Shown: positions 3,155-28,458, counted from the stretch's first letter. The stretch: 64,000 nt of DNA from Parvicellaceae bacterium (GCA_047639575.1 JBLIOB010000001.1:178-64177); one strand, 5' to 3'. Program-made: numbers and translations. Notes: generated by a model not told the origin, from the sequence alone.

Positions 3155-4321
3155 TTAGGCAGCTCTAATTCTGCCTTGTTGAAGTAACACTTCATCCCCG
3201 AAATGAGCATTAAGGAAAATGCCAAGCCTTTCATTGAACGAAGATGTGGTTAATTTACTATTGAATATAAATTTACCTCTCATGCCATGCGTCCTAATCT
3301 CCTCTGGGTAATCCAAATAATACTCAATTGCTTTCGCTAATGATCTAGCATCATTATGTTTCACCAAAAAACCACTCTTTTTATTTGAAATAATTTCTTT
3401 GGCTCCACCATGATCTGTCGCAATAACCGCTCTACAACAACTCATTCCCTCTAATACAGTTGTTGGAAAAGGGTCTTTCATTACACTAGGAACTAAAATC
3501 ACATTAGCCTTGGAGAAATGACCCTTTACATCAGGTGTGAAAGGAAGAATATTCACAATACTTTGTAAGTTATCTTCAATCACTCTTTTTAACAAATCAT
3601 CTCTAAGGTATTTCTTGCTTTCTACTGTATCTCCAACGATATGAAATCTCGCCTTCTTGAGTTTATCTGATGGAATAATTTTCAAAGCATCCATCAAATA
3701 CCATTGTCCTTTTCCCGGCTTTATCCGTCCAATTAAAAAGAATCGAATAGGCCCTTTCACTATGTTTTGACCAGCAACAATAGATTGAATCCCGTTATAT
3801 ATCACCTCTGTTTTACCAGATCTAATATACTTATGTAGATTATTCTCAACCGCTTTCGACACACATACAATTTTTCGATTGTAACGATTTGCCATTTTCG
3901 CAATTTGACGCGCTACTACTTTTGGCTTTTCAACTATTTCATGACAATGGAGAAAAGAAGGTATTTTCAATCGATCGGTAATTTTACTTACATAAACACC
4001 AGCCATTGTATTATGATACGCTAAACTAAAATTATGGATAGCGTGTAAATTTTTAATCAAATGTTTAGTCTTCTGATAATCGGAATAAAAAGAAGATATT
4101 CCTTTAACACTCATCCTATTTCTGTATATAACTGAAAGAAAATCGACAAAAATTATATCTGTGTTTTCAACTTGATCCGTAATAAATTTGGTCAGTTCTC
4201 CATCTTTAGGCAGCAGGATGATTTTCCTCGTTGAGGCGGGAAACACCTTAAGGGCGTTAACTAAAATTCGGTCTGCACCATAAAGTTCATTACTTGGATG
4301 TGTTACTAATATTGTTTTCAT
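3155..4321 (-). CDS. Glycosyltransferase family 4/1 (GT-B)
   Basis: 388 aa. C-terminal pattern PTTVLEGMSCCRAVIATDHGG is typical of GT1/GT4 nucleotide-sugar binding domains. Confidence 0.7.
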   Translation of the reverse strand: MKTILVTHPSNELYGADRILVNALKVFPASTRKIILLPKDGELTKFITDQVENTDIIFVDFLSVIYRNRMSVKGISSFYSDYQKTKHLIKNLHAIHNFSLAYHNTMAGVYVSKITDRLKIPSFLHCHEIVEKPKVVARQIAKMANRYNRKIVCVSKAVENNLHKYIRSGKTEVIYNGIQSIVAGQNIVKGPIRFFLIGRIKPGKGQWYLMDALKIIPSDKLKKARFHIVGDTVESKKYLRDDLLKRVIEDNLQSIVNILPFTPDVKGHFSKANVILVPSVMKDPFPTTVLEGMSCCRAVIATDHGGAKEIISNKKSGFLVKHNDARSLAKAIEYYLDYPEEIRTHGMRGKFIFNSKLTTSSFNERLGIFLNAHFGDEVLLQQGRIRAA

Positions 4322-4322
4322 A

Positions 4323-5609: not shown

Positions 5610-5649
5610 TTTATCCGTATTTCGCCAGAGGCGAGAGAAGCTTCCTGAT

Positions 5650-8274: not shown

Positions 8275-8295
8275 TCAAATTATTTAAATAGACTT

Positions 8296-8312
8296 ATGCG
8301 TAATTCATGCCA
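8296..8312 (-). promoter_or_regulatory. Weak sigma-54 (-24/-12)-like element
   Basis: Minus strand reads TGGCAT-GAATT-ACGCAT, with the GG and GC dinucleotides at consensus spacing (consensus TGGCAC-N5-TTGCW). It lies about 22 nt upstream of the start of 5650..8274. The -12 half deviates (ACGC instead of TTGC). Confidence 0.2.
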
Positions 8313-8402
8313 CATGCACTACTCTCTTTATTAATAAGGATTTCTAAGATGTTAATGGTTTAAACTGTCCAGAACAGAGAGCGTTTTTCCCAGAATGGGA
8401 TG

Positions 8403-9698
8403 TTAATTTGATACGGCTCCAAACCGTTTCTGAAGTCGATTTAAGCTAACACGATCAAAACTAGTCATGTGCTTTCGTTGTTTGATAACAAATAACACGA
8501 TCAAGTACTGATAAAAAAGAATTCCATAATTCGCATCTCCAAAAAATCCAAACTCAGTAAATGAATTAATTAATATCGGAATGAACAGGGCGATAAAAAA
8601 CTGTCGGTACGGACTAACTTTTTCAATTACAAAATTCCTGACCGTACAAACTACATTCCAAAAAGCAATAAAAAAGCCGATAAAGCCTAAGTTCATAAGA
8701 ACTTGCATAAAAGTGTTATGTGTCATCTTACCTGGATAGGTAAATAAACCTTGAAAATAGTCGGTGTAGTTTATTCGCATAAAACCGTAGCCCAACCAAG
8801 GCTCTTTAACAATCCCTTCATTCAGAAGAGCAGTCCAAAAAGGAAGGCGACCCGTCATACTCATTACTTCCTCTACACCTCCACCATCTTTAAATATTAC
8901 AAACTTTAATGCCAAGGGAACAGAAATCACAGCCCCGACTACCATAACCAAAATGATCTTTTTATTTTTTGTCATTAATCCTATGATCGCTGTAATTAAA
9001 AAAAAGCCAATCATAGATGATCTAGAACTAGTTAGCGCCAAGACAATCATGGCAATTATCATCTTTATAATAACCCAAAATTTCTTATCGAATTTTAAAC
9101 TTAAATAGCACATCGCTGCCCCAATTGAAGAGAGCATTCCGAGTTCATTTGGGTTCATTAAATAGCCTCCTAGTCTTTGCTCTTCGCCTCCCCGCATCCC
9201 ACGGTAAAATGTATCTTCGCTTATCAAACTACCTATTAAAAATGTAAGTAATATTGGAATTATTGCATTAGCAAATAACCTTACCATATTGACTTCATGT
9301 TGTGGGAAATGAAAATTGATTGTATAAACAACTTGAATAAACACAATCACAAAGACAAAACTCTCTACGGTCATTCCTAACTGCAAAGCCGAGTATGCCG
9401 GATCTGTACTCCACATAAAAGAAGCGAGCCCCAGAATTAGATACAGCGTATACAGTATTGGGCTGAATAAATTTTTATATTCAAAATTTTGAATACAACC
9501 TAACTTCCTTAGTTTGTAGGAATAGAAAAAAATAAAACCTGTACACCCAATTCTGAAGATAATTTTGAATATCTGAGTAATCCCTCTATCCTCTACAATT
9601 GAAAAATAACCAACTATTTTAAAAAATAAAATCAGCGTCAGAATTATGCCTGCCTTCTTAATATAAACAGGCAACCTGCTATTTTGATGAACGCTCAA
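8403..9698 (-). CDS. wzy: O-antigen ligase/Wzy-like polysaccharide polymerase
   Basis: 431 aa with about 11 TM helices. Wzy_C-like segment LTSSRSSMIGFFL. Located inside the EPS locus. Confidence 0.6.
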   Translation of the reverse strand: MSVHQNSRLPVYIKKAGIILTLILFFKIVGYFSIVEDRGITQIFKIIFRIGCTGFIFFYSYKLRKLGCIQNFEYKNLFSPILYTLYLILGLASFMWSTDPAYSALQLGMTVESFVFVIVFIQVVYTINFHFPQHEVNMVRLFANAIIPILLTFLIGSLISEDTFYRGMRGGEEQRLGGYLMNPNELGMLSSIGAAMCYLSLKFDKKFWVIIKMIIAMIVLALTSSRSSMIGFFLITAIIGLMTKNKKIILVMVVGAVISVPLALKFVIFKDGGGVEEVMSMTGRLPFWTALLNEGIVKEPWLGYGFMRINYTDYFQGLFTYPGKMTHNTFMQVLMNLGFIGFFIAFWNVVCTVRNFVIEKVSPYRQFFIALFIPILINSFTEFGFFGDANYGILFYQYLIVLFVIKQRKHMTSFDRVSLNRLQKRFGAVSN

Positions 9699-10798
9699 TT
9701 ATTATAAAGTTTGTTGATTTCTTGAGCAATTAAAGTCCAACTAAAATGGTGAGCAATGGTTCTTCTACAATTTTCTGCCATTTTACTGTAATGTTTAGTG
9801 CCATGCAATTCTTGAAATTTTTTAAGCGCTTCAGCCAAAAGCTTTGGAGAGTTATTTTCTAATGATAAGCCACAATGGTATTTACTAACCTGTTCAGCCA
9901 AATTAGTTTCTGGAGATACAATTACCGGAACACCCAATGCCATACTTTCTAAGACAACACCAGGAATTCCTTCGTTCCTTGATGTTAGGACCAAGGCTGT
10001 AGACTCTCCTATCAACTCATCTTTTTCTTTCCCAAATAATGGACCAAGACATACAATATGTTTGGCCAAATTATTTTTGCGGATTAGAAGCTGAAAAGCT
10101 TTTGATTGATTTCCTCCGCCAATTACTTTCAAGTTTATATCTACTCCTTGTCTAACGCATTCCTTTACTGCCTGAACAAGTATATCCAAGCCTTTAGTTT
10201 GAATGTCAATTCTACCGCAAAAAACAAATTGAAGTTTAGATGACTTTTTCCCTGAGAATGATTTCAACTCTTGTCCATTAGGGATTAATACATACTTTGT
10301 GCTAATCTTTTTAGATCGTATACCCTCTATTTCAGATTGACCAATGAGCTGAATTACTTTTGCATGATTTAGAAAATAACGATCGAACAATATAAAGTAA
10401 AGGGTCTTTTTCAATTTACTAGTATGCAATACTCGTAGATTATAGCCGCCATGAAGATTCACCACGTACTTTATATTCTCTTTGATTAAAAGTCGGGACA
10501 CCATAAAAAATTGGGGAATAAAAGCACCATGAAAATGAAATACAACGCCATTTGAATCTTCTTCAAGAATTGCTTCTTTCAATCTCCGATCTAAACTAAA
10601 TTTTGCTTCATCTTGAAATAATTTAGTTATATATGGGCGTTTTGGGTAATCATGGACAAGTACCTTTGTAATCCCCCAAATTTCAACATTTAAACCAATA
10701 CTATTTTGAGCAGCTGCCAAGCTACTCACTACCTTATTTACTCCGTTTTGGCGATTAGGATTAGCTTTCCCAAGAATGATATGAATAACCTTCATCAT
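9695..10798 (-). CDS. Glycosyltransferase family 1
   Basis: 367 aa. LVLTSRNEGIPGVVLESMALGVPVIVS motif. 4-nt overlaps with both neighbours. Confidence 0.7.
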   Translation of the reverse strand: MMKVIHIILGKANPNRQNGVNKVVSSLAAAQNSIGLNVEIWGITKVLVHDYPKRPYITKLFQDEAKFSLDRRLKEAILEEDSNGVVFHFHGAFIPQFFMVSRLLIKENIKYVVNLHGGYNLRVLHTSKLKKTLYFILFDRYFLNHAKVIQLIGQSEIEGIRSKKISTKYVLIPNGQELKSFSGKKSSKLQFVFCGRIDIQTKGLDILVQAVKECVRQGVDINLKVIGGGNQSKAFQLLIRKNNLAKHIVCLGPLFGKEKDELIGESTALVLTSRNEGIPGVVLESMALGVPVIVSPETNLAEQVSKYHCGLSLENNSPKLLAEALKKFQELHGTKHYSKMAENCRRTIAHHFSWTLIAQEINKLYNN

Positions 10799-12021
10799 CT
10801 TTTGTGCAATTTTAACTTGCCAAGGAAATAAGTCAAACCAATGACTTGTGTACTATAAAATCCAATTATTACACCCGCTAATCCCAATTCATGAATTAAC
10901 GGATATGCCAGCAGTAAACTCACCGCGCTGCTAATAGCATAACTATGAAAAATCAATCTATTCTGCTCAATTGTTCGAATATAGAATCTAAGTATTGTAC
11001 CAGCATACACAAGGAAGTACATGATAGCGAAAGCGCTAAAAAGAGTCCCATAACTAATCATTTCCTGTCCATAGACCCAGGATAAAACTTCTTGATCAGC
11101 AAACACAAAAAATAGAATTATGGTGCTTACTGGAATCAGCGCTTTTAAAGACAATATGCGCGTTTCTTTTTTGAGCAATTTCAAACCACCAACAGACATT
11201 TGTTTCGCCATGGAAATCGGAACAATATTTTCTAGGGCCAAAAAGAGGACATGTAATACTCCCATTAAATTTTGCATCATCCGAACTACACCCAGTGCGG
11301 ACACACCCAGCCATAAACCAGCCATCAATCCAAATGCATTACCAGAAAACCATTGTAAAAAAGAGGTCCCAACAAGGTATTTCGAAAAAGCCCAATTTTG
11401 CTTGGCGAGTTTCCATATTCGCTTCCTTTTAATTTCGGCTATTCTAACTGGATACCTTGCCATCCCCATTAAAACACTCAATCCATAAGTTAAAACCAAA
11501 ACATATACTGCAGAAGTAATGGTCAGAACATCTTGATATGATAGCAGAAGAATCAATGGCACTTGCAACCCATAGGCAACAGCATCTCTAAAAAACACCT
11601 TGATTTCCGATTTACTTACAAATCCAATTCTTCGATCAAAATCTTGTATCTGATAAAGGAAAATAAATAGACTTCCTCCCACGGCAAGCTCTATACGTTC
11701 CGATTGAAATACAATAAGAAAAACGACAAATGCAACCAGCATTGAAAGAGAAGCCACGAATAAAGCTATAATCTTTTGCTGTCCCAAGTAGAATGGTTTA
11801 TTCATCTTTTCGGCATACTGACTGTAAATCGTTTGTGAGATAAAACTTTGCTGAAAACTGAATAAAACGAAATTGGTCATCCAGATAATACTAAACTCTC
11901 CAAAGGACTCAATACCAATTTTTCTAGTAAGAACAATTGCCATTAAGAAATTAGTTCCACTAACTAGCCCTTGATCCGCAAACACGAGCAATGTTCTATA
12001 TTTCCACCACCATCTTCTCAC
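10795..12021 (-). CDS. wzx: Polysaccharide flippase (Wzx/MOP superfamily)
   Basis: 408 aa polytopic membrane protein. Position and size match a Wzx flippase. Translationally coupled to the wzc-like gene. Confidence 0.55.
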   Translation of the reverse strand: MRRWWWKYRTLLVFADQGLVSGTNFLMAIVLTRKIGIESFGEFSIIWMTNFVLFSFQQSFISQTIYSQYAEKMNKPFYLGQQKIIALFVASLSMLVAFVVFLIVFQSERIELAVGGSLFIFLYQIQDFDRRIGFVSKSEIKVFFRDAVAYGLQVPLILLLSYQDVLTITSAVYVLVLTYGLSVLMGMARYPVRIAEIKRKRIWKLAKQNWAFSKYLVGTSFLQWFSGNAFGLMAGLWLGVSALGVVRMMQNLMGVLHVLFLALENIVPISMAKQMSVGGLKLLKKETRILSLKALIPVSTIILFFVFADQEVLSWVYGQEMISYGTLFSAFAIMYFLVYAGTILRFYIRTIEQNRLIFHSYAISSAVSLLLAYPLIHELGLAGVIIGFYSTQVIGLTYFLGKLKLHKR

Positions 12022-14303
12022 CTAATGTAATACCACAAATAGTTCTTAATTCTCTTGATAAAGTTGGCTCCCTGCGCTTCATAGCTCAATCCGCTCCCAA
12101 TATATAACCCGTTAAAATTACTAGCCTTATGAGCAGAATTTAATATGATATGAATATTGTCTATCCCATGCTCTTGCTGTATTAGATCCGGATTTACAGC
12201 AAAATGCTTTTTGGTATATCTTGCTCTTATTATAAATAGATTAATCGAGGCCAATTTCATCATTGGGATTGCTTCTGGAGAAATGGCAGTTGGCGGAGTA
12301 TCGATGACCACCACATCATACTTTTTGAATAAGTTAGTAGTCAAGCTTTCAAATTTTTTAACACCACTTATTTGAGTAGCTTCATCTCGAATTCCTCTCA
12401 CAACAATCAAATCAGGAAGAGACGAATCCGTATAAATTACATGGTCTTCTAGCGGCCCAATATCTTTAAACGTACTAATTAGCTTTTCTTCTTCCAAACT
12501 ATTATTCAAACCGTGTAAGCCGTTACAAGAATCAAAATCCGCATATAAAGTGGAGTATCCCAATTGTGTGAAATGTTTTGCCATTCTTGTCGCAACAAGA
12601 CTTCTACCTTCTCCTCTTATAGAAGATGCAATAGCCACAATTTTAGGCTGTTCATCATCTATTTTGCTAAGGATCCCAGATGCCAAATTCCCAACCTCAA
12701 CATCCAAGTTATTGAATCGAAATTTCTTTCTAACAACGCCAATAATAGAAGTATCCGTTTTCCGTTCAATATCAGTTCGATAAATAATTTTGCCTGATGC
12801 TGAGTCTTTTATAAAAACAAACGCAATACCGAGAATAATTCCTAGCAAACCTGACACAAAAGTTATTAGGGTTTTATTAGGCGAAATTGGTTTCGAATTC
12901 AATGTCGCAGGCTGTATAATTCGATGAAAAGAGATTAACGCGCTACTAGCAATTGCAGCCTCTGTTCGCTTCTGAGATAGAAATGTATAGACCTGTTCAT
13001 TTAGTAAAAACTCTCGTTCTAAAACCTTCATTTCTCTCTCTCTAGTAGGAAATCCGTCAAACATTTGTTCCTCTTTGGAAATCCTACTTTTCATCTCTAA
13101 TCTCTTCGTTTTAATATCACTTTTACTTGTTTTAATCGCTTCTTCTATGTAATTTTTTATTTCCTGTATTTTCTTGTCAACAGCCAATATTTTAGGATCT
13201 TCTACCGTGTATTTCAACAGTAAATCATGCCGTTCATCGATGTATTGTTTCATCTTTTTCACTAACTCAGTCATTAGTAAATCTCCATAACCAAAATTGA
13301 TTGAGGTCTGATTAAAATAGTCCCCCGACTGCATGTATTCATCCAAAGAATCAATTGATTCCTGCTGTATTTGAACGTTAATTAACTGTATCTTCAGATT
13401 AGCCAATGACCGCAATCCTGTCTCGGTTTCTTGCTTTGTGTTTACAACCTTATTTTCTATTTTATATTTCTCTAATACACCTTCAGACTCAACCAATTTT
13501 TGCGTAACCTCAGCCAGCCGCTCATCTATAAAGTTCAGCGTGTTTTGTGCAGCTGAACTTTTTGTTTTAACGTAATCTTCGATATAAACTTCACATAGGT
13601 GATTAACAATATGCTGGGCTCTTCTAGCATTCTGATCATCATAAACGATTCTGAGAACAGGTATTTCTTTATCAATTGCATTAATATGCAGATGTTCCAA
13701 AACTTTATTTACAACAGATTCTGAAGAATTCAATTCAATTCGATACGAGCCAACAGCCATTTGATCGTCATAGCCTTCTTTTATGCTTATCACAACCATA
13801 TAATCTTTTAATTTAATAGAGTCTCCATAATGATATTTAGACTTCGTTAATGCTCCTTTAACAAGCTCAATACCATTTTGTGATGCGTTGACAACAATAT
13901 TATTTGGCGGTGCCTTATCTTTATAAGAAACAAAATCAATCTCCAACGGAGAATCAACGCCATAAATCAATTCTTCTTTTCCAGCTCCTTGTCTGAACAC
14001 TCGAACACCTGCATTAATTTGATTCACAACGGCCTTTAATAATAAAGGTGATTCCAAAACCTGTGCTTCAGATTCTATCTTGTTTTCTGATGAAAAAATA
14101 TCCAGGTCGCTATATAAATTGTTGCTAGAGAATCCATACGCCTGATCATCTAATTTAATTTTCGCCACACTTTGATAAATTGGCGTAGCCTTTTTTATAT
14201 AATTCCTAGCTAATAGAATTGCTAATACAAGTACCAACGCTATAAATGGCGACCCCTTCACATAAGGCAAAAGTCCAATTTTTATTTGCTGAATTTGATT
14301 CAT
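12018..14303 (-). CDS. wzc: Wzc/GumC-type chain-length determinant with BY-kinase-like domain (Walker A Lys replaced by Arg)
   Basis: 761 aa. N-terminal Wzz-like periplasmic/coiled-coil region flanked by TM helices. C-terminal P-loop domain has SSIRGEGRS and Walker B VVVIDTPP. Tyr-containing tail NYLWYYIR. Confidence 0.7.
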   Translation of the reverse strand: MNQIQQIKIGLLPYVKGSPFIALVLVLAILLARNYIKKATPIYQSVAKIKLDDQAYGFSSNNLYSDLDIFSSENKIESEAQVLESPLLLKAVVNQINAGVRVFRQGAGKEELIYGVDSPLEIDFVSYKDKAPPNNIVVNASQNGIELVKGALTKSKYHYGDSIKLKDYMVVISIKEGYDDQMAVGSYRIELNSSESVVNKVLEHLHINAIDKEIPVLRIVYDDQNARRAQHIVNHLCEVYIEDYVKTKSSAAQNTLNFIDERLAEVTQKLVESEGVLEKYKIENKVVNTKQETETGLRSLANLKIQLINVQIQQESIDSLDEYMQSGDYFNQTSINFGYGDLLMTELVKKMKQYIDERHDLLLKYTVEDPKILAVDKKIQEIKNYIEEAIKTSKSDIKTKRLEMKSRISKEEQMFDGFPTREREMKVLEREFLLNEQVYTFLSQKRTEAAIASSALISFHRIIQPATLNSKPISPNKTLITFVSGLLGIILGIAFVFIKDSASGKIIYRTDIERKTDTSIIGVVRKKFRFNNLDVEVGNLASGILSKIDDEQPKIVAIASSIRGEGRSLVATRMAKHFTQLGYSTLYADFDSCNGLHGLNNSLEEEKLISTFKDIGPLEDHVIYTDSSLPDLIVVRGIRDEATQISGVKKFESLTTNLFKKYDVVVIDTPPTAISPEAIPMMKLASINLFIIRARYTKKHFAVNPDLIQQEHGIDNIHIILNSAHKASNFNGLYIGSGLSYEAQGANFIKRIKNYLWYYIR

Positions 14304-15052
14304 TATCTTGTCAACAATGTACCCAACAGCACTATAGCGGTTAACGTGCTTGCAATTGGGATTAGCGTTGGAGCCTTCTTCTCTATTGTTTTCCCAGGGC
14401 GCGCAGGAACATGAATTATATCACCATCTTTTAAATTGATTTGTAACAACTTTAACTGATCCTTTCCGTCCAGGTTTAATTGATACATTTTATCATCTCG
14501 AATGAATCTAATTTTTTTTGTCTGTGCGTAATACAGCATTCCTTCTGCCTTACCTATCAGTGTAACTAGCGTGTTCTTTTCCTCATCTAGCAAATAATTA
14601 CCGGGTGATTTTACCTCGCCCAAAATCGTTACTTCTTTATTAAGCAGCCTAACTTTGATAATAGGATTCAGCAAAAAAACAGAGTATAAACTCACCAGAG
14701 TGTCCTCGGCCTGAGAAAGAGTGAGCCCTCCTAATTTAATTAACCCTAGTTTGGGAAAACTCACCTCTCCTTTTGAATTAATTAAAACCCATTTTCCGAA
14801 GGACTCATGAGAATTATAAATCGTGAATAATGATCCTACACTCAAATCATCATGATTCCATATGCTTAGACTTATTTTATCATCTGGCTTTAGCACATGT
14901 TGTTTTGTGCCCATTGTATCTAACAACGCACTGTAATCTTTTTGTACTTCAACTTTATTAAAGTTCTTACTAGCACCACAAGACGTGGCTATTAATAGTA
15001 TTGTCATCAAATAAAATTGAAAAAAATTAAATCGATTCATCTTAAAATCCAT
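14303..15052 (-). CDS. wza: Polysaccharide export outer-membrane lipoprotein (Wza family)
   Basis: 249 aa. Lipobox LLIATSCG. Poly_export-like LKPDDKISLSIWNHDDL. C-terminal hydrophobic helix. Confidence 0.75.
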   Translation of the reverse strand: MDFKMNRFNFFQFYLMTILLIATSCGASKNFNKVEVQKDYSALLDTMGTKQHVLKPDDKISLSIWNHDDLSVGSLFTIYNSHESFGKWVLINSKGEVSFPKLGLIKLGGLTLSQAEDTLVSLYSVFLLNPIIKVRLLNKEVTILGEVKSPGNYLLDEEKNTLVTLIGKAEGMLYYAQTKKIRFIRDDKMYQLNLDGKDQLKLLQINLKDGDIIHVPARPGKTIEKKAPTLIPIASTLTAIVLLGTLLTR

Positions 15053-15536
15053 TTTGTAGCAACATGATTATCGACCAAACAATTAAAATGAACAGCACAA
15101 CAATGGGTACTGTAATTTTGGAAAGAAAATGATAACGTTCATTTTCCGCCAGTAAATAATTGAGTTGGAATGCTCTTCTAACCACAGACGCCATTTTCAA
15201 AAGACCATCATCACCTTTGTCTATGTAGTCGTATGCACCATATTTAAGGGCGTTTATTGCAACCTCTAATTCTTCTTGTGCACTTAAAAAGATGACTTGA
15301 ATTTCTGGATATAACCCCTTAATTTGTTTCAAAATGGTAAGGCCATCACTATCACCTAAACCGTGATCCAGTAACACAATTTCGGGGATCTTGTATAAAT
15401 TGTCAACCGCTGTTTTTCCCGAATGATATACTTCAATCTGGGTTAAATGTTCATTTTGAAGCTGCTTTTCGATCGCATTCGCATAAAAAACATCGTCTTC
15501 TACAACAAAAATTAGAGGGAATTTTCTACGTTTCAT
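15042..15536 (-). CDS. Response-regulator receiver domain protein with C-terminal transmembrane tail anchor
   Basis: 164 aa. Receiver signature FVVEDD, VLLDHGL, IFLSAQ, KYGAYDYIDK, then ITVPIVVLFILIVWSIIMLL near the C-terminus. The 3' end overlaps the wza start by 11 nt. Confidence 0.75.
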   Translation of the reverse strand: MKRRKFPLIFVVEDDVFYANAIEKQLQNEHLTQIEVYHSGKTAVDNLYKIPEIVLLDHGLGDSDGLTILKQIKGLYPEIQVIFLSAQEELEVAINALKYGAYDYIDKGDDGLLKMASVVRRAFQLNYLLAENERYHFLSKITVPIVVLFILIVWSIIMLLQNGF

Positions 15537-15548
15537 ATTGGGGGAGTT

Positions 15549-15977
15549 TTATGATACTGATTTAGTCATCAGATCAGGGTTAATAGATCTGTTAGTTGTA
15601 TTGATAAATTCTTGTGACATCACAAATCTCTGAATACGGCCAATAGGAATAACTTTTCTAGAAATCGCCCAGCTATTTTCTGGGGAGAGATGATAGATTG
15701 GCACATCAGACTGGAATAAATTCACTTTCTCTAGAAACTGCTTGGTCAGAATTCCATTCCCAGCATAATATTCATCTAATATGCACAGATCAGGAGTGAT
15801 CGCTGACACCGCCATGAATGAATTTTCGGATGCCTCTAAATTAATTAATTGCGTATGCTCTATATCCAGATGATGTTGCCAGAAAAAATCGCTTTTGAGC
15901 GTAGAGCTGATAATGAGTAATGTGGAATTTTTCATGTCTGTCGATTTGATATCAACAGTCCAATCTATAGTCCACAA
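15549..15977 (-). CDS. Hypothetical protein, possible degenerate (pseudo-)receiver
   Basis: 142 aa (start may be the internal MKNSTLLIISS). Beta-alpha pattern LLIISS / DLCILDEY / VPIYHLS resembles a receiver, but the N-terminal acidic pair is Ser-Ser. Confidence 0.35.
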   Translation of the reverse strand: MWTIDWTVDIKSTDMKNSTLLIISSTLKSDFFWQHHLDIEHTQLINLEASENSFMAVSAITPDLCILDEYYAGNGILTKQFLEKVNLFQSDVPIYHLSPENSWAISRKVIPIGRIQRFVMSQEFINTTNRSINPDLMTKSVS

Positions 15978-16045
15978 AATGCAACTGCCTGATATACATA
16001 AAGTTACATTGCTTGAACTAAGAAGGTATTCCCGAATTGGGAAGT

Positions 16046-18508
16046 TTAATCCTCAATTTGAGAAAAATCGTTGCGAAGAGCATCCACCGACTCCTGAAGC
16101 CCTAGCAAGAAAGAATTCACTAGATCATTATCAATCTTTGTATCAAACGCTTCAATCAACCTCACTAATTCCTTTAGTTGTGGAGCTACCGTATCAATAG
16201 ATGGTTTTAATTTATGAGCTACTTTAGACATCTTCAATACGTCTCCTTGTGACATTGCTTCTTCTAAAGACGAAGAACATTCAACACATGATTTCACAAA
16301 CGTTGAAAGCATTTTGAAAATAAATTCTTGATCACCATCTGCTATTCTAGCAAGTTTATCTAGAGAATAATAATTAGTGGAATCGATAATTTTTTGAAAA
16401 GATGGGTTTGCATTTTTCAATTCTTTTGGTTCTTCGATCGCGTTAATATTATTAGATATAATGGCGTATAGATCATTCATACTGAACGGTTTACTTAAAT
16501 AATCTTGCATTCCAACCGTAAGACACTTTTGATTGTCCCCCTTTATTGCGTTAGCCGTTAAAGCAATAATTGGCGTTGATAATTTCAGTTTTTCTCTTAT
16601 AATTTCAGTTGCTTCATACCCATTTAAATTAGGCATCATAATATCCATTAGAATAAGATCAAATTTATATTGCATTAGCATCTCAACAGCTTCAAGACCG
16701 TCACAAGCTTCCTCTACTATCACACCCTTCTTCATTAACACAGCAGACGCCATCATTCTATTCATCTCATTATCATCTACCAAAAGAACTGAAATTCCAT
16801 TCAAGTTTTGAATTTCTGCAACCTCCAATGCTTCCGGAAAAGGTTTTTTTGATATTTTAAGAGGCAGCTTAACCGTAAATAAAGAACCTATTGTAATTTG
16901 ACTTTGCACTTCAACACTTCCATCCATAATTTCAGTGAGTTGCTTTACGATTGCTAATCCTAATCCAGTCCCTCCGTATTGTCTAGTAACTCCTTCATCC
17001 GATTGGTTAAAACTTTCAAAAATATGATGTAGTTTATCATTTGGAATTCCAATGCCGCTATCTTTAACTTCAATGCATAGTTCATGTAATTCAGAAGACA
17101 TCTTCTTTTGTTGAACCGTGACAACCACACCGCCATTTTGAGTAAACTTAACCGCGTTAGAACACAGGTTAAGCATTACTTGATAAATTCTCAATGAATC
17201 GCCCAGGTAACAGTCGGCAACGTTTTTCTCCACATTAATTTTAAAGTAGATCCCTTTTTCCTCAGCTCGAAAAGCAACAGCTGCATAAATTTGATCTGAA
17301 ATAGATTTGAATTGAAAAGGAATTTTTTCAATACTTACTTTCCCTGCCTCTAATTTTGAAAAATCAAGAACATCATTGATAATACCTAATAAATTATTTG
17401 AAGATATTTGAATGGACTCTAAATAATGAAGTTGTTCTTCACTTAATTGGGAGTCGAGCAATAAGTGGTTTAAGCCAATAATTCCATTCAACGGAGTTCT
17501 CATCTCATGACTCATTTTAGCTAAGAATTCTTCTTTAATTTGAGCGGAACGTTCGGCTAACATTTTAGCATCTCTCAGGTCCTGCTCCATCGATTTTCGA
17601 ACAGTTATATCAACATACACTCCAATAGAACCAACAACCTCATTTTTATGATTAAACACCGGAGCGCCAGAAATCAACACCCATGCATATTCGTTATTTT
17701 TCTTCTTTAACTTAACCTCATAAATCGAAGACTGCCCTTTACTCCTCTTCATATTTTCTGAATCCATAACATTATTATAATGTTCATCCAAAAATGTGAG
17801 AGCAGCATTCTTTCCAATTAACTCTTTTTGGGAATATCCTGACAATTCGCAAAACATAGGGTATGCTCTAATAATAGACCCCTCGAGATCTACTTCCAAA
17901 AGTCCCAACTCCATGTTTTCTATAATTTTATGGTACTTCTCTTCGTTCCTTTTAACTTCTTGTTCTAGCTTGTTTTTTTCTGTTATATCAGATATTTGAA
18001 CCAACCGGGCGACTCTATTCTGGAACGGTATCGTGCAAGCCTGGATTTCCACAATTAATTCATCACCACTTTTAGTAATATGGGTCCATTTTAGAATGTT
18101 CTCAAAACCGTCACTACTATGTACAATTTCAGAAACATCTTTTATAAGCCTATCCTTATCTTTTTTCAGGTGCATTTCAAAAATTGACAGTTTAATAAAC
18201 TCTTTTTTGGAATAGCCATACTTTTCAGTTGCCCGCTCATTTACTTGTAAAATTTGATAGTCATTAGGACAGAAAATCAGCAAGGGCAATGGATTATTAT
18301 CGAATAACATTTTAAAATGTTCTGCTCTTTCCTTCAATTCCTCAGCTCGAAGTTCAACTTTAGACTCTAATCTTTCATTTAGATTCTTCAATCCTTCATT
18401 CGCTTCATAGAGTTTTGTAGCTTTTTCCTCAAGGATTTTTTCCGCCTCTATTCTAGCTGCATGTTCACGCTCAAATTTCCGTTTCCATATATCAAGTTCA
18501 CTACTCAC
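16046..18508 (-). CDS. Hybrid sensor histidine kinase (coiled coil, 2 PAS, HisKA, HATPase, receiver, HPt)
   Basis: 820 aa. H-box FLAKMSHEMRTPLNGIIG. G-box GGTGLGLAIVKQL. Receiver VLLVDDNEMN...LILMDIMMP...ALTANA. C-terminal HPt-like VAHKLKPS. No TM segment, so predicted cytoplasmic. Confidence 0.85.
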   Translation of the reverse strand: MSSELDIWKRKFEREHAARIEAEKILEEKATKLYEANEGLKNLNERLESKVELRAEELKERAEHFKMLFDNNPLPLLIFCPNDYQILQVNERATEKYGYSKKEFIKLSIFEMHLKKDKDRLIKDVSEIVHSSDGFENILKWTHITKSGDELIVEIQACTIPFQNRVARLVQISDITEKNKLEQEVKRNEEKYHKIIENMELGLLEVDLEGSIIRAYPMFCELSGYSQKELIGKNAALTFLDEHYNNVMDSENMKRSKGQSSIYEVKLKKKNNEYAWVLISGAPVFNHKNEVVGSIGVYVDITVRKSMEQDLRDAKMLAERSAQIKEEFLAKMSHEMRTPLNGIIGLNHLLLDSQLSEEQLHYLESIQISSNNLLGIINDVLDFSKLEAGKVSIEKIPFQFKSISDQIYAAVAFRAEEKGIYFKINVEKNVADCYLGDSLRIYQVMLNLCSNAVKFTQNGGVVVTVQQKKMSSELHELCIEVKDSGIGIPNDKLHHIFESFNQSDEGVTRQYGGTGLGLAIVKQLTEIMDGSVEVQSQITIGSLFTVKLPLKISKKPFPEALEVAEIQNLNGISVLLVDDNEMNRMMASAVLMKKGVIVEEACDGLEAVEMLMQYKFDLILMDIMMPNLNGYEATEIIREKLKLSTPIIALTANAIKGDNQKCLTVGMQDYLSKPFSMNDLYAIISNNINAIEEPKELKNANPSFQKIIDSTNYYSLDKLARIADGDQEFIFKMLSTFVKSCVECSSSLEEAMSQGDVLKMSKVAHKLKPSIDTVAPQLKELVRLIEAFDTKIDNDLVNSFLLGLQESVDALRNDFSQIED

Positions 18509-19044
18509 TTTCGTGCAATCTGAAAATTAATTTCGGTGCCATTGCCAGATTTGTCTTCTAACTCAACCTCTAATGTCTCTTTGTAATAAATTCCACATCC
18601 ATGAATTAATCCAAGGGCAAAATGGCCCATTGATCGTTCACTTTTATAAATCATTTCAAGATGATTCTGATCATGCCTGATCATTTGAAAGGATGGCAAT
18701 TCTGCATCCGGATATAGTTTTACAACCTCCACATGAACGTATGATTCAACCTTCTCTAAAAAATCCAATGAATTCTCTATACCTGCAAAAAAATTCTGAT
18801 ATGTATTGCTAAAACTATTGAACATGTATTTCCCAAACGTTTCCAGCAAAATAGGAACTTCTATGTTTTTTAGTTTAGAAAGAGCCACTACTAATTGAAC
18901 TATTTCCTCATGAGGATATGTGCCAACTGAAGTATATGCCCCTATATGACCCAAATTTGCAGATTGAATCATTTTATCCGAGACGTCAAGTCCAAAATTA
19001 TCTTCAACCATTTTAATGTATTCCGTAAACACTACTCCTTTCAT
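18505..19044 (-). CDS. hnoX: H-NOX (haem nitric oxide/oxygen binding) sensor protein
   Basis: 179 aa. Starts MKGVVFTEYIKMV. Candidate proximal His in SYVHVEVVKLYP followed by a conserved Pro. Y-x-S-x-R haem-propionate motif as YKSER, then LGLIHG. 4-nt overlaps with the kinase and the sigma-54 regulator genes. Confidence 0.8.
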   Translation of the reverse strand: MKGVVFTEYIKMVEDNFGLDVSDKMIQSANLGHIGAYTSVGTYPHEEIVQLVVALSKLKNIEVPILLETFGKYMFNSFSNTYQNFFAGIENSLDFLEKVESYVHVEVVKLYPDAELPSFQMIRHDQNHLEMIYKSERSMGHFALGLIHGCGIYYKETLEVELEDKSGNGTEINFQIARK

Positions 19045-20390
19045 ACCAATTCTTTTTGTTCTTGTAATAATCTATAAATTGTTGATTTACCTACATCTAA
19101 TATTTGGGCAACCTTTATAACGTTGTTATTATTTTGATTTAGATATAATCTAATAATTTCATTACTGTATTCTTTCAAAGTAAGTTCTTGGTTCATTAGC
19201 TCCTCAATCCCAACATCACCTGACGAAATTGCGTGAAAATTAATATCATCAACATCTATTGTATTATTTTCACATATGGCACAAGACAATTCAACCAAAG
19301 CTCTTAGCTCCCTTACATTTCCAGGGTAATTGTACGTGAGTAATCTGTCTTGAGCCCGCTGAGTAATATCGGTCGGTGCTAATTTGTTTTGCTTTTGAAA
19401 ATCTTTAATAAAAAATTTAGCTAAAATCAGTATGTCTTCCTTTCTTTTTCTCAGGGCTGGCAATTCGATCGGTAAACCGATTAATCGATAATAAAGATCT
19501 TCTCGAAAGTTTCCATTTTTCACCTCCTCTTGGAGATTTTTATGAGTTGCACAAATAATTCGAATGTCTAGTTTCACTAATGAATTATCTCCAATTCTGC
19601 TCAACTCTCTTTCCTGTAGTACTCGTAAAAGTTTAGCTTGTAAGGCAATGTCCATGTCTCCTATCTCATCTAAGAATAGAGTTCCTTTGTTTGCCGCTTC
19701 AAACTTGCCAATTCGTCTTGAATTTGCACCTGTAAAGGCACCTTTCTCGTACCCGAACAATTCACTTTCCAGAAGCTCCGAAGGGATTGCAGAAACATTC
19801 ACGGCTACAAACTTGCTTTTTTTTCTGTCTGAATTATAATGAATTGCTTTGGCCACAAGCTCCTTCCCTGTTCCCGTTTCGCCATATATAGAAACGTTAA
19901 TATTCGTTTTGCAAGCTTTTTCCATTAACTTAAAAACGCCTATTAACAATTGGCTATTTCCTTTTATATAATTGCCAAATGCATATTTATTAATTACTTC
20001 TTCTTCAAGCTCTACTATTCTTTCTTTTAGCTCTTGTTTTTCCAGAACAATATTAATCGTATTCCATAATCTTTCTTTTGTATCATCGTCTTTCACTATA
20101 TAGTCATAAGCGCCATTATTCAATAAAGTAATCGCAGTTCTCACATCTTCCTGACCTGACACAACAATTACCTCCGACTGAGGACACGATGACAACAACC
20201 TTTTTAAACAGTCTTCTCCACTGATATCGGGAAGACCAAAATCCATGATGATTAGATCGAACCGATTTCGACTTGAGAAAAATGATTTAGACGTTTCAAA
20301 ACATTGAACTTCGAAATCAGGGTTTAAGCTCACCTGATACTTCAACATTTGGGAGTACCATTGGTCGTCTTCAATAATAGCTATTTTCAT
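19041..20390 (-). CDS. Sigma-54-dependent response regulator (NtrC family)
   Basis: 449 aa. Receiver (IIEDD, LIIMDFGLPD), AAA+ domain with GETGTGKE, the GAFTGA loop and RED/RLIG motifs, and a C-terminal Fis-type HTH. Confidence 0.9.
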   Translation of the reverse strand: MKIAIIEDDQWYSQMLKYQVSLNPDFEVQCFETSKSFFSSRNRFDLIIMDFGLPDISGEDCLKRLLSSCPQSEVIVVSGQEDVRTAITLLNNGAYDYIVKDDDTKERLWNTINIVLEKQELKERIVELEEEVINKYAFGNYIKGNSQLLIGVFKLMEKACKTNINVSIYGETGTGKELVAKAIHYNSDRKKSKFVAVNVSAIPSELLESELFGYEKGAFTGANSRRIGKFEAANKGTLFLDEIGDMDIALQAKLLRVLQERELSRIGDNSLVKLDIRIICATHKNLQEEVKNGNFREDLYYRLIGLPIELPALRKRKEDILILAKFFIKDFQKQNKLAPTDITQRAQDRLLTYNYPGNVRELRALVELSCAICENNTIDVDDINFHAISSGDVGIEELMNQELTLKEYSNEIIRLYLNQNNNNVIKVAQILDVGKSTIYRLLQEQKELV

Positions 20391-20637
20391 ATTCTAATAA
20401 ATGGAATGTTTCCCAAAACGGAACACGCGAACAAAAATCCTAGACTTCTCTTTACACTTAAGAAAGTGTTAATTCAGTCAATATAACGTGGCAACAGGAC
20501 GGAAACAATTATTTTCATTAATGGTTTTAGGCTATTTTACGCACCGTAGAATACAGGCTAAAATTCTAATTAATTGGTTCTACGTAACTTCCTACGTTAT
20601 AGTTTCCCGTTTTGGGATTATATTTATTTGAAAAAAG

Positions 20638-24531: not shown

Positions 24532-27195
24532 TTACAAAGTAAACTTAATTCCTGCATTAATTTGTCTAAATCCTCCAGGCATTATTCCAGAAGATACTCG
24601 ATGCAACCTAGAAGCCTTATAGACCTTATTTGTTAAGTTTTTCCCTACAACAAAAATACTCATGTTGCTCAATAGTTTTTTCTTGCTTTTGATTCTATAT
24701 CCAATGTTAGCATCGATAACGGAATATGCATCTAACTTTCCAATTGCCCCTTCAGCAGTTTCATTCTCAAAGTTTAAATACTCGGAGTATTGGGCACCTA
24801 CAACGCTATAACTTGCGCCTATACTAAATCCTTTATACGCATAGCTTAAGCTTCCCGTTATTATTTGGGAAGGGGTATAAGGAGCTCTATTATCAGCAAT
24901 TTTTCCTTCTCCAAATTCATATTCAACTGATTCTATACTTCCGAAATCAGCATAAACTAGATCTCTAGAAATTAGACTGTCGCCTGCGAAAAACACGTTA
25001 AACCCTCCTCTTTCCGTATTGATCTTATCAATTAATTCATTCTTAGAATCTGTCGTATGGTTTGCTTTAAACATGTCCGAATCTTTTAATTTGCCATCTA
25101 ATATTGTTGACTTCATCATGGTTAAAGCAACGCCAACCACAATCTTATGTTCTTCTAATTTTAAAAGATGAGCTAAATCAAAGTTCGCACTTACTTCCAA
25201 TCCCTTAATATCTACAGATCCTAAAGTCTCGAAAGCCTCTTTTCGTCCAGCCGCGTAGTAATTTTGAATTACGTTATAAAATGAAGTGACCTGTCCAGAT
25301 AACTTACCTTGAAAAGCATATCCCCTTGTACCGACTTCAAAACTATTGCTTGTTTCAGATTTGATATTTACCTCATCTATTGCCGGGGATGTATTTACTA
25401 TCCCCTCTTCATCAACTCCAACAAACCCAACGCTTGACGTTGGAGGTGTAAACCCTTGATAATACCCACCAAAAATTTCCAGCTTATTTAAATTTGTATC
25501 TACTAATACTTGCTGTATAGATATACCAGGTAGCAACTGACTAAATTTATTTAGCGTTGATCCGTAGTGTTTTGATCCATCATTTAAAGGGTCATTCGAA
25601 ATAGATAGCAAATTAAACTTCCGCATTTCTATTAGCTCATATCTAAGCATTGGAGAGAAACTAAATTTCTTATATGTAAACTGATTTTTTACGTAGCCAG
25701 ACATAGCCGTCATTGAAAACTTCTCATCTTTTATCAAGTTTCCGCTTCGTGCAAACCTGCTGGAGTCTCCAGTTATTTCTTGATTGAAAAATTGCTCTGT
25801 ATGCACATTCAATCCAACCGTCAACTGCCCTTTGAAATCAGATGAAAGATCATACTTCCATTTAAAGTCTTCTTTTACTCCAGCTACTCTAAAAACTCTG
25901 TTTCGGGCTTTCGTTGACTCTCTTCCGTTGCTCAATCTACCAACTCTCACATAATCGTCTCCAGAAAATGTTTGATCTGTTAAGTATGAATATCTACTAT
26001 TGAAAATATCTTCTCCCAAATAAGTTCGTACATCAGAGGCTGCTAACAAGGTTGTGTTCTGTCTCCACCAATCTCTTGAAAATTGTGAGGCGTAAACAGT
26101 TGTTGTAAACATCGTTTTTTCATTTAAACTGTACTTATAGATTAAATCCAACGCATATCTTTTAGTAGATAAATCATCAGAATCAAATGGATTTTGAATT
26201 GGATCAAGCGCAAACGTCAATGGAGTTTGTCCGCTGTAAGTGGCTTGTGATTCTTCTTGATGAAAATTGAATTTCGCGTATAGAGTCGATTTACTCCCTA
26301 GGTCTGCGTAGACTTTTCCGGTGGTATTAAATATCTTAGAAGAGGTATTATTTTGGAATCCATTGAACGACTTATTTAAGATCTGCAGTTCCGCTCCAAC
26401 ATTGTTTCGTGTTCCTCCTAAAGTTACGAATTGGGATTGGTATCCTCTTTGACCGCCAACTAATGAAACTCCTAGTTCTGGTTTTAATGAAGGTCTTTTG
26501 GTAATGTAATTAATGACGCCATACATATTATTTGGCCCCATTGTTAAAACATCTGCGCCTTTAATAATTTCAATTCCGTCCAATCGATCAGCGGGTGGAT
26601 TATAATAAGCTGATGGTGACAAATAAGGAGCAGGTGCAATCGGAATTCCGTCTTCTAATAACAATACTTTTTCGGATCGTCTTGGATACGACCCTCTAAT
26701 CCCAATATTTAGTCTATTGGAAATACCCATATCTCCAGCAACATTTACTCCTACTACTTTCTTTAAAATTTCTTCACTTCCTAGCGGCTGAACTTTTCTC
26801 AACTCCATTTGAGATATTACATTTGATGTTCCCTGATAATGGCTGCTGTATCCCGGCCTGATATAGACAATTTCAAAAGGATCCATGAGTGTAAACAAAG
26901 GACTCATTTCAACGGTACCAATGTCAGTGATTCCATCGTTAAACTCTACCTCTGCGATCACCACTTTTGCATAACCTAAAGTAGTAATCGAAACATGGTA
27001 AACTCCGCTTTTCACATTTTCGATGAAAATGTTTCCCTCTTCATCTGAATAAGTGTTAATCAAATCGCCAATAGAAACAGAAACACTTTGCATGTTTGCT
27101 CCTCCGTTACTAGAAACTACTTTTGCTTTTAAAGTTCCTGCATACGCTGAAATACTTAACAATAACAACACAACAACCCCGCAATACTTCATCAA
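24532..27195 (-). CDS. TonB-dependent receptor with carboxypeptidase-regulatory-like N-domain
   Basis: 887 aa. Signal peptide, CarbopepD_reg-like beta sandwich, plug (NVAGDMGISNRLNIGIRG) and a long beta-barrel. Confidence 0.8.
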   Translation of the reverse strand: MMKYCGVVVLLLLSISAYAGTLKAKVVSSNGGANMQSVSVSIGDLINTYSDEEGNIFIENVKSGVYHVSITTLGYAKVVIAEVEFNDGITDIGTVEMSPLFTLMDPFEIVYIRPGYSSHYQGTSNVISQMELRKVQPLGSEEILKKVVGVNVAGDMGISNRLNIGIRGSYPRRSEKVLLLEDGIPIAPAPYLSPSAYYNPPADRLDGIEIIKGADVLTMGPNNMYGVINYITKRPSLKPELGVSLVGGQRGYQSQFVTLGGTRNNVGAELQILNKSFNGFQNNTSSKIFNTTGKVYADLGSKSTLYAKFNFHQEESQATYSGQTPLTFALDPIQNPFDSDDLSTKRYALDLIYKYSLNEKTMFTTTVYASQFSRDWWRQNTTLLAASDVRTYLGEDIFNSRYSYLTDQTFSGDDYVRVGRLSNGRESTKARNRVFRVAGVKEDFKWKYDLSSDFKGQLTVGLNVHTEQFFNQEITGDSSRFARSGNLIKDEKFSMTAMSGYVKNQFTYKKFSFSPMLRYELIEMRKFNLLSISNDPLNDGSKHYGSTLNKFSQLLPGISIQQVLVDTNLNKLEIFGGYYQGFTPPTSSVGFVGVDEEGIVNTSPAIDEVNIKSETSNSFEVGTRGYAFQGKLSGQVTSFYNVIQNYYAAGRKEAFETLGSVDIKGLEVSANFDLAHLLKLEEHKIVVGVALTMMKSTILDGKLKDSDMFKANHTTDSKNELIDKINTERGGFNVFFAGDSLISRDLVYADFGSIESVEYEFGEGKIADNRAPYTPSQIITGSLSYAYKGFSIGASYSVVGAQYSEYLNFENETAEGAIGKLDAYSVIDANIGYRIKSKKKLLSNMSIFVVGKNLTNKVYKASRLHRVSSGIMPGGFRQINAGIKFTL

Positions 27196-27774: not shown

Positions 27775-28458
27775 CTAGTTTGAACTAGCGAAAAGAAACT
27801 TATTTGGACTAACTAATTGTGTTTTAACTGCGTACATCACGATTCCAGCTGTGTTATTTACGCCTAACTTTCTCATGATGTTCTTTCGATGCGTATTCAC
27901 CGTATGGCTACTTAGAAACAGCATATCGGCTACTTGAGTGTTAGTATACCCTTCAGCTATATGCGTAATCACTTCCATTTCTCGTTGAGACAACGAAATA
28001 GGATCGCAATTCATTTCTTCAAACTCTATTTCGTCAACGTTGATTTTCTCTTCACGTATTTTTTGAAGAATTTGACCACAGAAAAATTTATTTCCAGCTG
28101 CTGTTTCAATAACTGACTCGGCAATTTCTGATGCGGAACAATCTTTTTTAATATGACTGGTAATCCCTACTTTAATCGCATTGATTATAGTCTGTGCGGA
28201 TTGCTCAATAGTAATTGCAACAAATTTAACTTCAGGATGCACTTTTAAAACCGATGGGATAACTTGAATATCAAACTCGTTCGAAGTGTAATCTATCAAA
28301 ACAATCTGAGGCTTATTCTGTTTTACAAGTTGCAATAGATCATCTCCATTTACAGCTTCATCAATCACTTTAATCTGGCCAGAAGTTTCAAGTACCGTTC
28401 TTAAACCAATTCGAATTAGTTCACTAGAATCTGCAAGTAATACACTTATTTTATCCAT
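27775..28458 (-). CDS. LuxR/NarL-family two-component response regulator
   Basis: 227 aa. Receiver domain plus C-terminal LSQREMEVITHIAEGYTNTQVADMLFLSSHTVNTHRKNIMRKLG HTH. Confidence 0.85.
   Translation of the reverse strand: MDKISVLLADSSELIRIGLRTVLETSGQIKVIDEAVNGDDLLQLVKQNKPQIVLIDYTSNEFDIQVIPSVLKVHPEVKFVAITIEQSAQTIINAIKVGITSHIKKDCSASEIAESVIETAAGNKFFCGQILQKIREEKINVDEIEFEEMNCDPISLSQREMEVITHIAEGYTNTQVADMLFLSSHTVNTHRKNIMRKLGVNNTAGIVMYAVKTQLVSPNKFLFASSN

Follow-up and report, generated by a model that had tools for sequence, protein, structure and literature searches.

We analyzed a 64,000-nt stretch of DNA (the window) from a Parvicellaceae bacterium, a marine member of the Flavobacteriales represented by an uncultured metagenome-assembled genome (MAG), in which the gene for an H-NOX gas sensor lies next to a surface polysaccharide locus. 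Sixteen genes on the minus strand form a single unbroken string from position 20390 to 237. A sigma-54 activator, the H-NOX, a hybrid kinase, a small degenerate receiver, and a receiver with a hydrophobic C-terminal tail (REC-TM1) are followed by a Wza/Wzc/Wzx/Wzy locus, with a second tail-anchored receiver (REC-TM2) coming last (Table 1). Pfam searches and reading of the open reading frames (ORFs) agree with a preliminary description of this DNA as to gene order and domains, and both of the 4-nt overlaps reported there were confirmed directly in the sequence: activator and H-NOX share an ATGA at 19041-19044 (GAATTGGTATGAAAGGA), and H-NOX and kinase share a GTGA at 18505-18508 (CGAAAGTGAGTAGT). 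These overlaps point to a single operon in which translation may be coupled; the co-translation originally claimed from them is too strong. The start of wza overlaps the 3′ end of the REC-TM1 gene. Activator, H-NOX, kinase, and small ORF contain no hydrophobic segments and are therefore predicted to be cytoplasmic. No GGDEF, EAL, or HD-GYP domain was found among 47 window ORFs scanned with Pfam (all genes of the string and every ORF of at least 110 aa outside it), and a six-frame motif search of the window yielded no GG[DE]EF or HD...GYP motif, which bears out the earlier statement that no cyclic di-GMP (c-di-GMP) gene is seen. The two membrane-anchored receivers noted earlier do exist, each a REC domain with a C-terminal hydrophobic helix, while the count of four receivers was too low: the window holds at least six canonical ones (in the activator, the kinase, REC-TM1, REC-TM2, and two proteins upstream of the string) plus the degenerate one.

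Table 1. Positions, strands, and supporting matches or sequences of features in the window, with corresponding candidate promoter elements from syntenic loci (L numbers)
Feature	Position	Strand	Evidence or sequence
NtrC-type sigma-54 enhancer-binding response regulator (activator)	19041-20390	-	REC, AAA+, HTH
Stand-alone H-NOX heme sensor	18505-19044	-	Pfam HNOB 3.3e-41
Hybrid histidine kinase	16046-18508	-	Coiled-coil, PAS, PAS, HisKA, HATPase, REC, HPt (Pfam)
Small degenerate receiver-like protein, 128 aa	15549-15935	-	No Pfam match; start ATG 15935
REC-TM1, tail-anchored single-domain response regulator	15042-15536	-	Response_reg 3.4e-19; hydrophobic helix 134-164
Wza-type outer-membrane polysaccharide export protein	14303-15052	-	Poly_export 1.4e-14, SLBB_2 1e-12
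Wzc-like co-polymerase/tyrosine autokinase	12018-14303	-	Wzz, GNVR, AAA_31; two transmembrane segments
Wzx-like multi-transmembrane flippase	10795-12021	-	Orthologues in L167 and L168 match Polysacc_synt
GT1 glycosyltransferase	9695-10798	-	Glycos_transf_1 9.8e-30
Wzy polymerase	8403-9698	-	Wzy_C 1.5e-17
874-aa P-loop protein, second polysaccharide operon (3155-8274)	5650-8274	-	Pfam P-loop match
Two GT1 glycosyltransferases, second polysaccharide operon	4323-5609, 3155-4321	-	
DUF1972 glycosyltransferase, third polysaccharide operon (237-3026)	1824-3026	-	
WecA-like initiating transferase, third polysaccharide operon	688-1818	-	Glycos_transf_4
REC-TM2, second tail-anchored receiver	237-725	-	REC 2.5e-13; hydrophobic tail 141-162
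Single-domain receiver, 127 aa	27285-27668	-	
REC-GerE (LuxR-type) receiver protein	27775-28458	-	
Activator upstream region	20409-20618	-	Palindrome-like sites 20604-20618 and 20409-20424; AGGATTTTTGTTCGCG at 20426-20441; nonstandard spacing
Candidate enhancer after kinase stop	16010-16043	.	TTCCCGAATTGGGAA at 16029-16043, zero mismatches; weak second site 16010-16024
-24-like candidate ahead of degenerate-receiver gene	15947-15962	-	TGGACTGTTGATATCA; 81 nt past palindrome, 27 nt before ATG
Candidate enhancer ahead of 874-aa gene	8387-8401	-	ATCCCATTCTGGGAA; one mismatch to palindrome
Sigma-54-like promoter ahead of 874-aa gene	8297-8312	-	TGGCATGAATTACGCA; TGG at +89, GG-N10-GC fits, ATG 38 nt on
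Degenerate site pair ahead of DUF1972 gene	3146-3160, 3126-3140	-	Inner half-sites GGGAA-N6-TTCCC kept
-24-like element ahead of DUF1972 gene	3057-3072	-	TGGCTTAGTCTTCGCT; TGG 88 nt after first site, GG-N10-GC fits
Terminator-like hairpin ahead of DUF1972 gene	3081-3103		
Terminator-like hairpin after REC-TM2	231-249		
L084 -24-like element			TGGAACGCTTTAGGTA; 88-90 nt from first site
L026 -24-like element			TGGCATGATTTGTATA; 88-90 nt from first site
L015 -24-like element			TGGCATGGTTTGTATG; 88-90 nt from first site
L008 -24-like element			TGGAACAATGTTTATC; 88-90 nt from first site
L016 -24-like element			TGGAACAGTTTTCATA; 88-90 nt from first site
L168 -24-like element			TGGCATAGTTTGGGCA; 89 nt from first site
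L166 element ahead of P-loop gene			TGGCACATTTTTC; 111-112 nt from first site
L167 element ahead of P-loop gene			TGGCACGTTTTTC; 111-112 nt from first site

The sensor scores 141.3 bits against the HNOB (PF07700) cutoff of 25.5, covers model positions 1-162 of 163, and is thus a member of that family. Across 46 homologues, H104, P117, Y133, and S135 never vary, and R137 is kept in at least 90% of the sequences; H104, Y133, S135, and R137 align with H102, Y131, S133, and R135 of Tt (Caldanaerobacter) H-NOX. We take H104 to be the proximal heme-ligating histidine and Y-x-S-x-R to be the heme-propionate motif. The top relatives of solved structure are 6bde and 6bdd (4.7e-41) and 6ocv. Entries 6bde and 6bdd, whose sole difference is a Gly/Ala hinge position, carry the molecule name "2,4-dihydroxyhept-2-ene-1,7-dioic acid aldolase" yet align full-length as H-NOX, so that the name looks like an annotation error.

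The kinase has the features of an H-NOX-associated kinase: it adjoins hnoX in an operon, lacks a transmembrane segment, and has an intact H-box and ATPase domain (HisKA, 1e-21; HATPase_c, 2.3e-28). Its GTG start is supported because homologous kinases begin at or beside the H-NOX stop and have the same N-terminal coiled-coil. The activator has the full NtrC-family architecture, with a phospho-Asp receiver, an AAA+ domain carrying Walker A GETGTGKE and a GAFTGA loop, and a helix-turn-helix (HTH) domain (Sigma54_activat, 1.3e-69; Response_reg, 5e-15; AAA_lid_14). The match to HTH_8 is weak (Pfam E value, 0.0055); the "GKSTIYR" helix of the C-terminal HTH is invariant in an alignment of nine orthologues, as are receiver residues D50, S78, and K100. 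No NCBIfam equivalog reached its cutoff for the activator. The top match was PEP_resp_reg/PrsR (TIGR02915), and identification as PrsR was rejected since its 360.3 bits lie under the curated cutoff of 502.6.

The two tail-anchored receivers keep the residues needed for phosphorylation (E13, D14, D57, S85, and K107). An AlphaFold2 model of REC-TM1 (predicted local distance difference test [pLDDT], 93.2) is a standard receiver in which alpha5 is one unbroken helix (111-163) running into the hydrophobic tail, and its top Foldseek matches are receiver domains. Only 20 family members were found at E values of ≤1e-8 among 5.8 billion proteins. Three further contexts sampled from this family (L166, L167, and L168) all proved to hold the same module, and the family is confined to the module in every context examined. 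The frame of the small ORF spans 15549-15977, and homologue alignments place its start at the ATG at 15935. A word-indexed homologue search returned only the protein itself, only about 10 small homologues were counted in a set of 1.8 billion representative proteins, and a single-sequence AlphaFold model was unusable (pLDDT, 38.5). In hhalign, the small ORF aligns with the REC-TM profile over beta1-beta4 (probability, 88%; E value, 3e-6), with D54 opposite the phospho-Asp and S84 opposite the conserved beta4 Ser/Thr, and with the N-terminal acidic pair lost. With this alignment as the sole line of evidence, we classify the small ORF as a predicted degenerate receiver. The two receiver proteins 7 kb upstream of the module adjoin a TonB-dependent receptor (24532-27195) and CBM9/GHL10 proteins and may engage in cross-talk with the hybrid kinase.

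The remainder of the string is a Wzx/Wzy-dependent pathway, with Wza, Wzc, Wzx, Wzy, an initiating transferase, and four GT1/DUF1972 genes in one locus. NCBIfam Wzc and eps_fam matches of the Wzc-like protein fall under their cutoffs, and the window copy of the Wzx-like flippase has no Pfam match of its own. The 874-aa protein is soluble, and its sole recognizable feature is a P-loop near residue 670 with a weak dTMP-kinase-like match; Pfam, NCBIfam, and PADLOC gave nothing informative beyond it. Orthologues of 885 and 887 aa occupy the same place in L166 (17161-19818) and L167 (18596 onwards). Terminator-like hairpins together with the positions of the regulatory sites described below suggest four transcription units: the signaling operon; degenerate receiver to Wzy; P-loop protein plus two GT1 genes; and DUF1972, WecA-like, and REC-TM2 genes.

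The preliminary description had proposed looking for hnoX beside wza/wzc elsewhere in Bacteroidota, and the arrangement is indeed kept in ten loci, including the window. An H-NOX profile scan was run with one genome per species, and the best 80 of at least 594 loci were compared by tblastn with the window proteins. Six of these 80 hold the string in the same order and on the same strand: L008 (Fluviicola), L015 and L026 (both Putridiphycobacter), L016 (Crocinitomicaceae, the family that also includes Fluviicola and Putridiphycobacter), L084 (Flavobacteriales), and L014 (a Bacteroidia bin), the last until its contig ends in wzc. The conserved string comprises activator, H-NOX, hybrid kinase, in some cases the small ORF, receiver, Wza, Wzc, Wzx, GT1, and Wzy, and in the loci retrieved through the tail-anchored receiver (L166, L167, and L168) a P-loop protein of 885 to 887 aa was noted after Wzy. 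A kinase orthologue follows H-NOX in all ten. Because order is kept although protein identity to the window is only 35-60%, this conservation is strong evidence of functional linkage, and it supports a predicted functional link between the H-NOX/kinase/activator operon and the Wzx/Wzy-type locus beside it. About 70 others of the best 80 loci are plain H-NOX/kinase pairs. An activator stands beside H-NOX in other arrangements in L027, which adjoins WecA/DUF1972-like genes, L031, and L045. In L045 (a Saprospiraceae MAG, 4026-18863), the order is H-NOX, kinase, LytTR response regulator, NtrC-type activator, FIST protein, and second hybrid kinase, directly downstream of nonulosonic-acid genes (NeuB, DegT, and cytidylyltransferase), a different H-NOX/sigma-54 arrangement beside surface-glycan genes.

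The intergenic DNA of the syntenic loci carries a conserved pattern of its own. An inverted repeat, TTCCC-N5-GGGAA (near TTCCCAAAATGGGAA), directly follows the kinase stop in all ten, with a second, weaker site 19-21 nt downstream, about two helical turns away. In most loci a -24-like element, TGGCA(T/C) or TGGAAC, lies 88-90 nt past the first site, and in this class the start codon is 38-47 nt beyond the element. By count, a TGG(C/A)A(T/C) element stands at 88-90 nt in seven regions and at 111-112 nt in two more. Sites of the same kind recur in the window ahead of the second and third polysaccharide operons, and the 874-aa gene thus has a palindrome and -24-like element of its own. NtrC-type enhancers are typically laid out as tandem dimer sites near -115 with a GG at -24, and the conserved sites here look like an enhancer with a candidate sigma-54-type promoter. 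That the palindrome works as a terminator or other RNA hairpin is less likely because its stem is short (5 bp), the coding strand has no T-run, and conservation extends to the sequence itself, not merely to the pairing. The palindrome-like sites upstream of the activator gene are only a suggestion of autoregulation. In L008 (12975) and L016 (12145), the palindrome reads TTCTC-N5-GAGAA, with both half-sites changed symmetrically; the receiver is tail-less in the same two loci.

We consider it somewhat probable that this string is a self-contained, cis-encoded module through which a diatomic gas, most probably nitric oxide (NO), controls production of a Wzx/Wzy-dependent surface polysaccharide. 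The connections from H-NOX through kinase, HPt, and activator to the polysaccharide locus are inferred from gene conservation and DNA motifs, and we likewise infer that NO is the ligand, which sign the response has, and which proteins exchange phosphate. Heme-bound H-NOX would bind the kinase, and ligand binding would alter kinase autophosphorylation. Phosphate would pass from the kinase histidine to its own receiver and on to its own HPt, then to the receiver of the activator, which would assemble on the tandem sites and open sigma-54-type promoters of the three polysaccharide operons. In a second branch, the HPt would phosphorylate the tail-anchored receivers, themselves products of the activated operons, and these may modulate the Wzc/Wzx/Wzy/Wza machinery at the membrane or, once induced, drain phosphate and give negative feedback. 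In every characterized H-NOX/kinase pair, NO-bound H-NOX inhibits kinase autophosphorylation (PMC8738867). By analogy, NO binding would lower polysaccharide synthesis, although the sign is not readable from sequence.

Several observations weigh against this circuit. The nearest H-NOX homologue outside the source organism (P0002, 56% identity) belongs to a plain pair of H-NOX and 297-aa kinase, and H-NOX similarity alone is therefore no predictor of the module. In a neighbor-joining tree of 84 H-NOX sequences, those of the module fall in three to four groups with no single clade; the tree is star-like and cannot decide between a single origin and repeated recruitment. The tail anchor of the receiver is missing in L008 and L016 and the receiver itself is absent in L014, so a membrane branch is not universal. 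rpoN was not seen in the 64-kb window, which does not contain it; Flavobacterium psychrophilum, of the same order, has one sigma-54, whose promoters are reported as typical -24/-12 elements (PMC9723704). The -12 element here is noncanonical, with GG-N10-GC only at the window sites and in L168 and AT or GT in other genera, and the window promoter downstream of the kinase has an outlier spacing (+81) that implies a near-leaderless transcript. A plain sigma-54 consensus scan of the window is at chance level, and palindromes with ≤2 mismatches are not enriched there (21 vs 22.4 expected). Palindromes with ≤1 mismatch are more frequent than expected (5 vs 1.37, a count reached by 1 of 100 shuffles; three of the five sit in intergenic gaps of the string), and the composite of palindrome and TGG element matches nine times across the 236 kb of syntenic DNA, on the coding strand and within the expected gap in every case, versus six times in 2.13 Mb of other loci, but the motif was defined on part of the same data, and these statistics are descriptive and partly post hoc. 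L168 was retrieved after the motif had been defined and fits at +89.

Some of these points bear on the idea that the genes are mere neighbors with no direct wiring, the activator acting elsewhere, the palindromes serving as sites of another regulator or as RNA hairpins or terminators, and the operons being read from ordinary or extracytoplasmic function (ECF)-type promoters. Besides the noncanonical -12 element, TGGAAC also resembles an ECF -35 box, and a scan with the canonical sigma-54 sequence (TGGCAC-N5-TTGCW, ≤2 mismatches) gave nothing significant (31 matches vs 23.5 expected, none convincing in the locus), so that comparative footprinting was used instead. In L084, L008, and L016, terminator-like hairpins resembling those of the window separate the sites from the promoter. 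A metagenome scan with the activator alignment found only two close relatives and no added syntenic loci; these nearest relatives, L086 (9962-13254) and L087, are 52-54% identical and kinase-paired with no H-NOX or wza nearby, and the activator/kinase pair therefore occurs also without the gas sensor. Adjacency without direct wiring is nonetheless quite improbable in our judgment: order and strand persist over ten loci despite the divergence of the proteins, the palindrome sequence is kept within otherwise unalignable intergenic DNA, the tandem sites are separated by about two turns of the helix and keep a fixed distance to TGG, as is typical of NtrC-type enhancers, and such sites recur ahead of internal polysaccharide operons.

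The tethered receivers raise the question of where the main output lies. If it were mainly post-translational, the receivers would act on Wzc/Wzx/Wzy/Wza directly and the activator would mainly set expression of the signaling genes. The REC-TM1 gene overlaps wza and is module specific, a confident model shows alpha5 and the membrane helix as one continuous helix, palindrome-like sites occur upstream of the activator gene, and SypE of Vibrio fischeri is a precedent for a post-transcriptional response-regulator branch (PMC12369376). We judge this division of labor improbable, since palindromes are kept even where the receiver is tail-less or absent (L008, L016, and L014) and the best palindrome/-24 pairs front polysaccharide operons, not the activator gene. 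A narrower proposal, that the tail-anchored receivers, helped by the degenerate receiver, represent an undescribed type of output in which a tethered receiver directly gates Wzc/Wzx/Wzy/Wza, is tentative and in our view doubtful. If true, gas sensing would control polysaccharide polymerization or export post-translationally, in parallel with sigma-54-dependent transcription.

The same circuit could also answer to a signal other than NO, with H-NOX reporting O2, CO, or redox state and the kinase PAS domains adding to or dominating the input. Stable O2 binding in Tt H-NOX requires a distal-pocket tyrosine, and a phenylalanine in its place is expected in NO-selective H-NOX proteins. Alignment places Phe142 of the window protein at distal Tyr140 of Tt H-NOX and a methionine at Asn74, and F142 in place of the distal tyrosine hints at NO selectivity over O2 binding. 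Heme-independent redox sensing through a Zn/Cys site has a precedent in Vibrio cholerae H-NOX (PMC7108781), but the window H-NOX contains a single Cys, and a redox switch of that type is therefore unlikely. The ligand is not readable from sequence, the kinase holds two PAS domains with no assigned ligand, and the source organism is an uncultured MAG. All characterized kinase-adjacent H-NOX proteins respond to NO (PMC8738867), however, and we regard a different signal as unlikely.

The preliminary description had considered this wiring uncharacterized, but the known NO circuit of V. fischeri already joins H-NOX, kinase, HPt, sigma-54 activator, and polysaccharide locus. There, NO-bound HnoX inhibits HahK, which passes the signal through the HPt of SypF (and LuxU) to SypG, a sigma-54-dependent direct activator of the syp polysaccharide locus, and NO inhibits biofilm formation; SypE forms a second, post-transcriptional response-regulator branch (PMC12369376, PMC8738867). 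By its title, a study cited in PMC12369376 (Ray et al. 2013) describes the syp enhancer sequence for SypG. The window module resembles this system in its H-NOX/kinase operon, a putative His-Asp-His-Asp relay with HPt, an NtrC-type activator predicted to act through an enhancer on a multi-operon polysaccharide locus that encodes a second response regulator, and a predicted direct output other than c-di-GMP enzymes. No NCBIfam equivalog reached its cutoff, and the syp-type circuit is taken here as a functional class and not as a sequence family. The two also differ: in V. fischeri, hnoX-hahK is an operon of its own (PMC12369376), HahK borrows the HPt of SypF or LuxU, and several further kinases, RscS and BinK among them, converge on the pathway, whereas the window module is one contiguous string in a different phylum whose kinase carries its own receiver and HPt, with no converging kinases in the locus. 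SypE is a multidomain regulator acting on SypA, whereas the second branch here would consist of tail-anchored and degenerate receivers, small families confined to the module and without counterpart in the Vibrio systems. What is new is thus a cis-encoded Bacteroidota version of the circuit and a module-specific family of tail-anchored receivers; the overall circuit logic was already known.

Other described systems share parts of the design. In Vibrio harveyi and Vibrio parahaemolyticus, H-NOX/HqsK signals through LuxU to the sigma-54 activator LuxO (PMC6759604, PMC8738867), again an H-NOX and hybrid kinase with an HPt step to an NtrC-type regulator, but LuxO drives Qrr small RNAs in quorum sensing, the HPt is a separate protein, and the genes do not form one locus. 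The HnoX-HnoK systems of Shewanella oneidensis and V. cholerae likewise pair a stand-alone H-NOX with an adjacent soluble kinase, branch at several receivers, and control biofilm (PMC8738867); their outputs are the c-di-GMP enzymes HnoB and HnoD and the repressor HnoC, whereas the window ORFs scanned have no c-di-GMP domain. PrsK/PrsR of PEP-CTERM/exosortase loci also place an NtrC-type activator and kinase beside an exopolysaccharide locus (PMC1569441), but without H-NOX, and no exosortase or PEP-CTERM genes were seen in the window. More broadly, comparative genomics has linked sigma-54 to exopolysaccharide genes (PMC3162934).

Work on H-NOX signaling has been almost entirely on Proteobacteria, and in the literature searched we came across none on a Bacteroidota H-NOX pathway. 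Here the sensor, relay, transcription factor, candidate sites, promoters, and targets all lie within 20 kb, in an arrangement that recurs across genera, and the module offers a candidate DNA site for a Bacteroidota enhancer-binding protein. Algae, denitrifiers, and animal hosts are sources of NO and also provide the surfaces and particles that these bacteria colonize. Marine and freshwater Flavobacteriales (Parvicellaceae and Crocinitomicaceae) may tune capsule or slime production to NO, and if so, this control would have consequences for particle aggregation and carbon export.

Elsewhere in the window, an apparent mobile/defense island occupies 31223-48447, with a GC dip to 0.293 at 32-34 kb. 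It encodes an Mrr-nuclease/nSTAND3 NTPase matching PADLOC candidate PDC-S73 (1.6e-138), a full-length Old-family ATPase-TOPRIM nuclease (757 bits), an HNH effector-like protein, a DUF3987 protein, a 1832-aa protein sorted by the type IX secretion system (T9SS), and a tyrosine integrase (47203-48447). A hint of a cold habitat comes from a 646-aa protein encoded at 61182-63122 on the plus strand, in which an ice-binding-like domain (3.6e-70) is combined with a T9SS C-terminal sorting domain.

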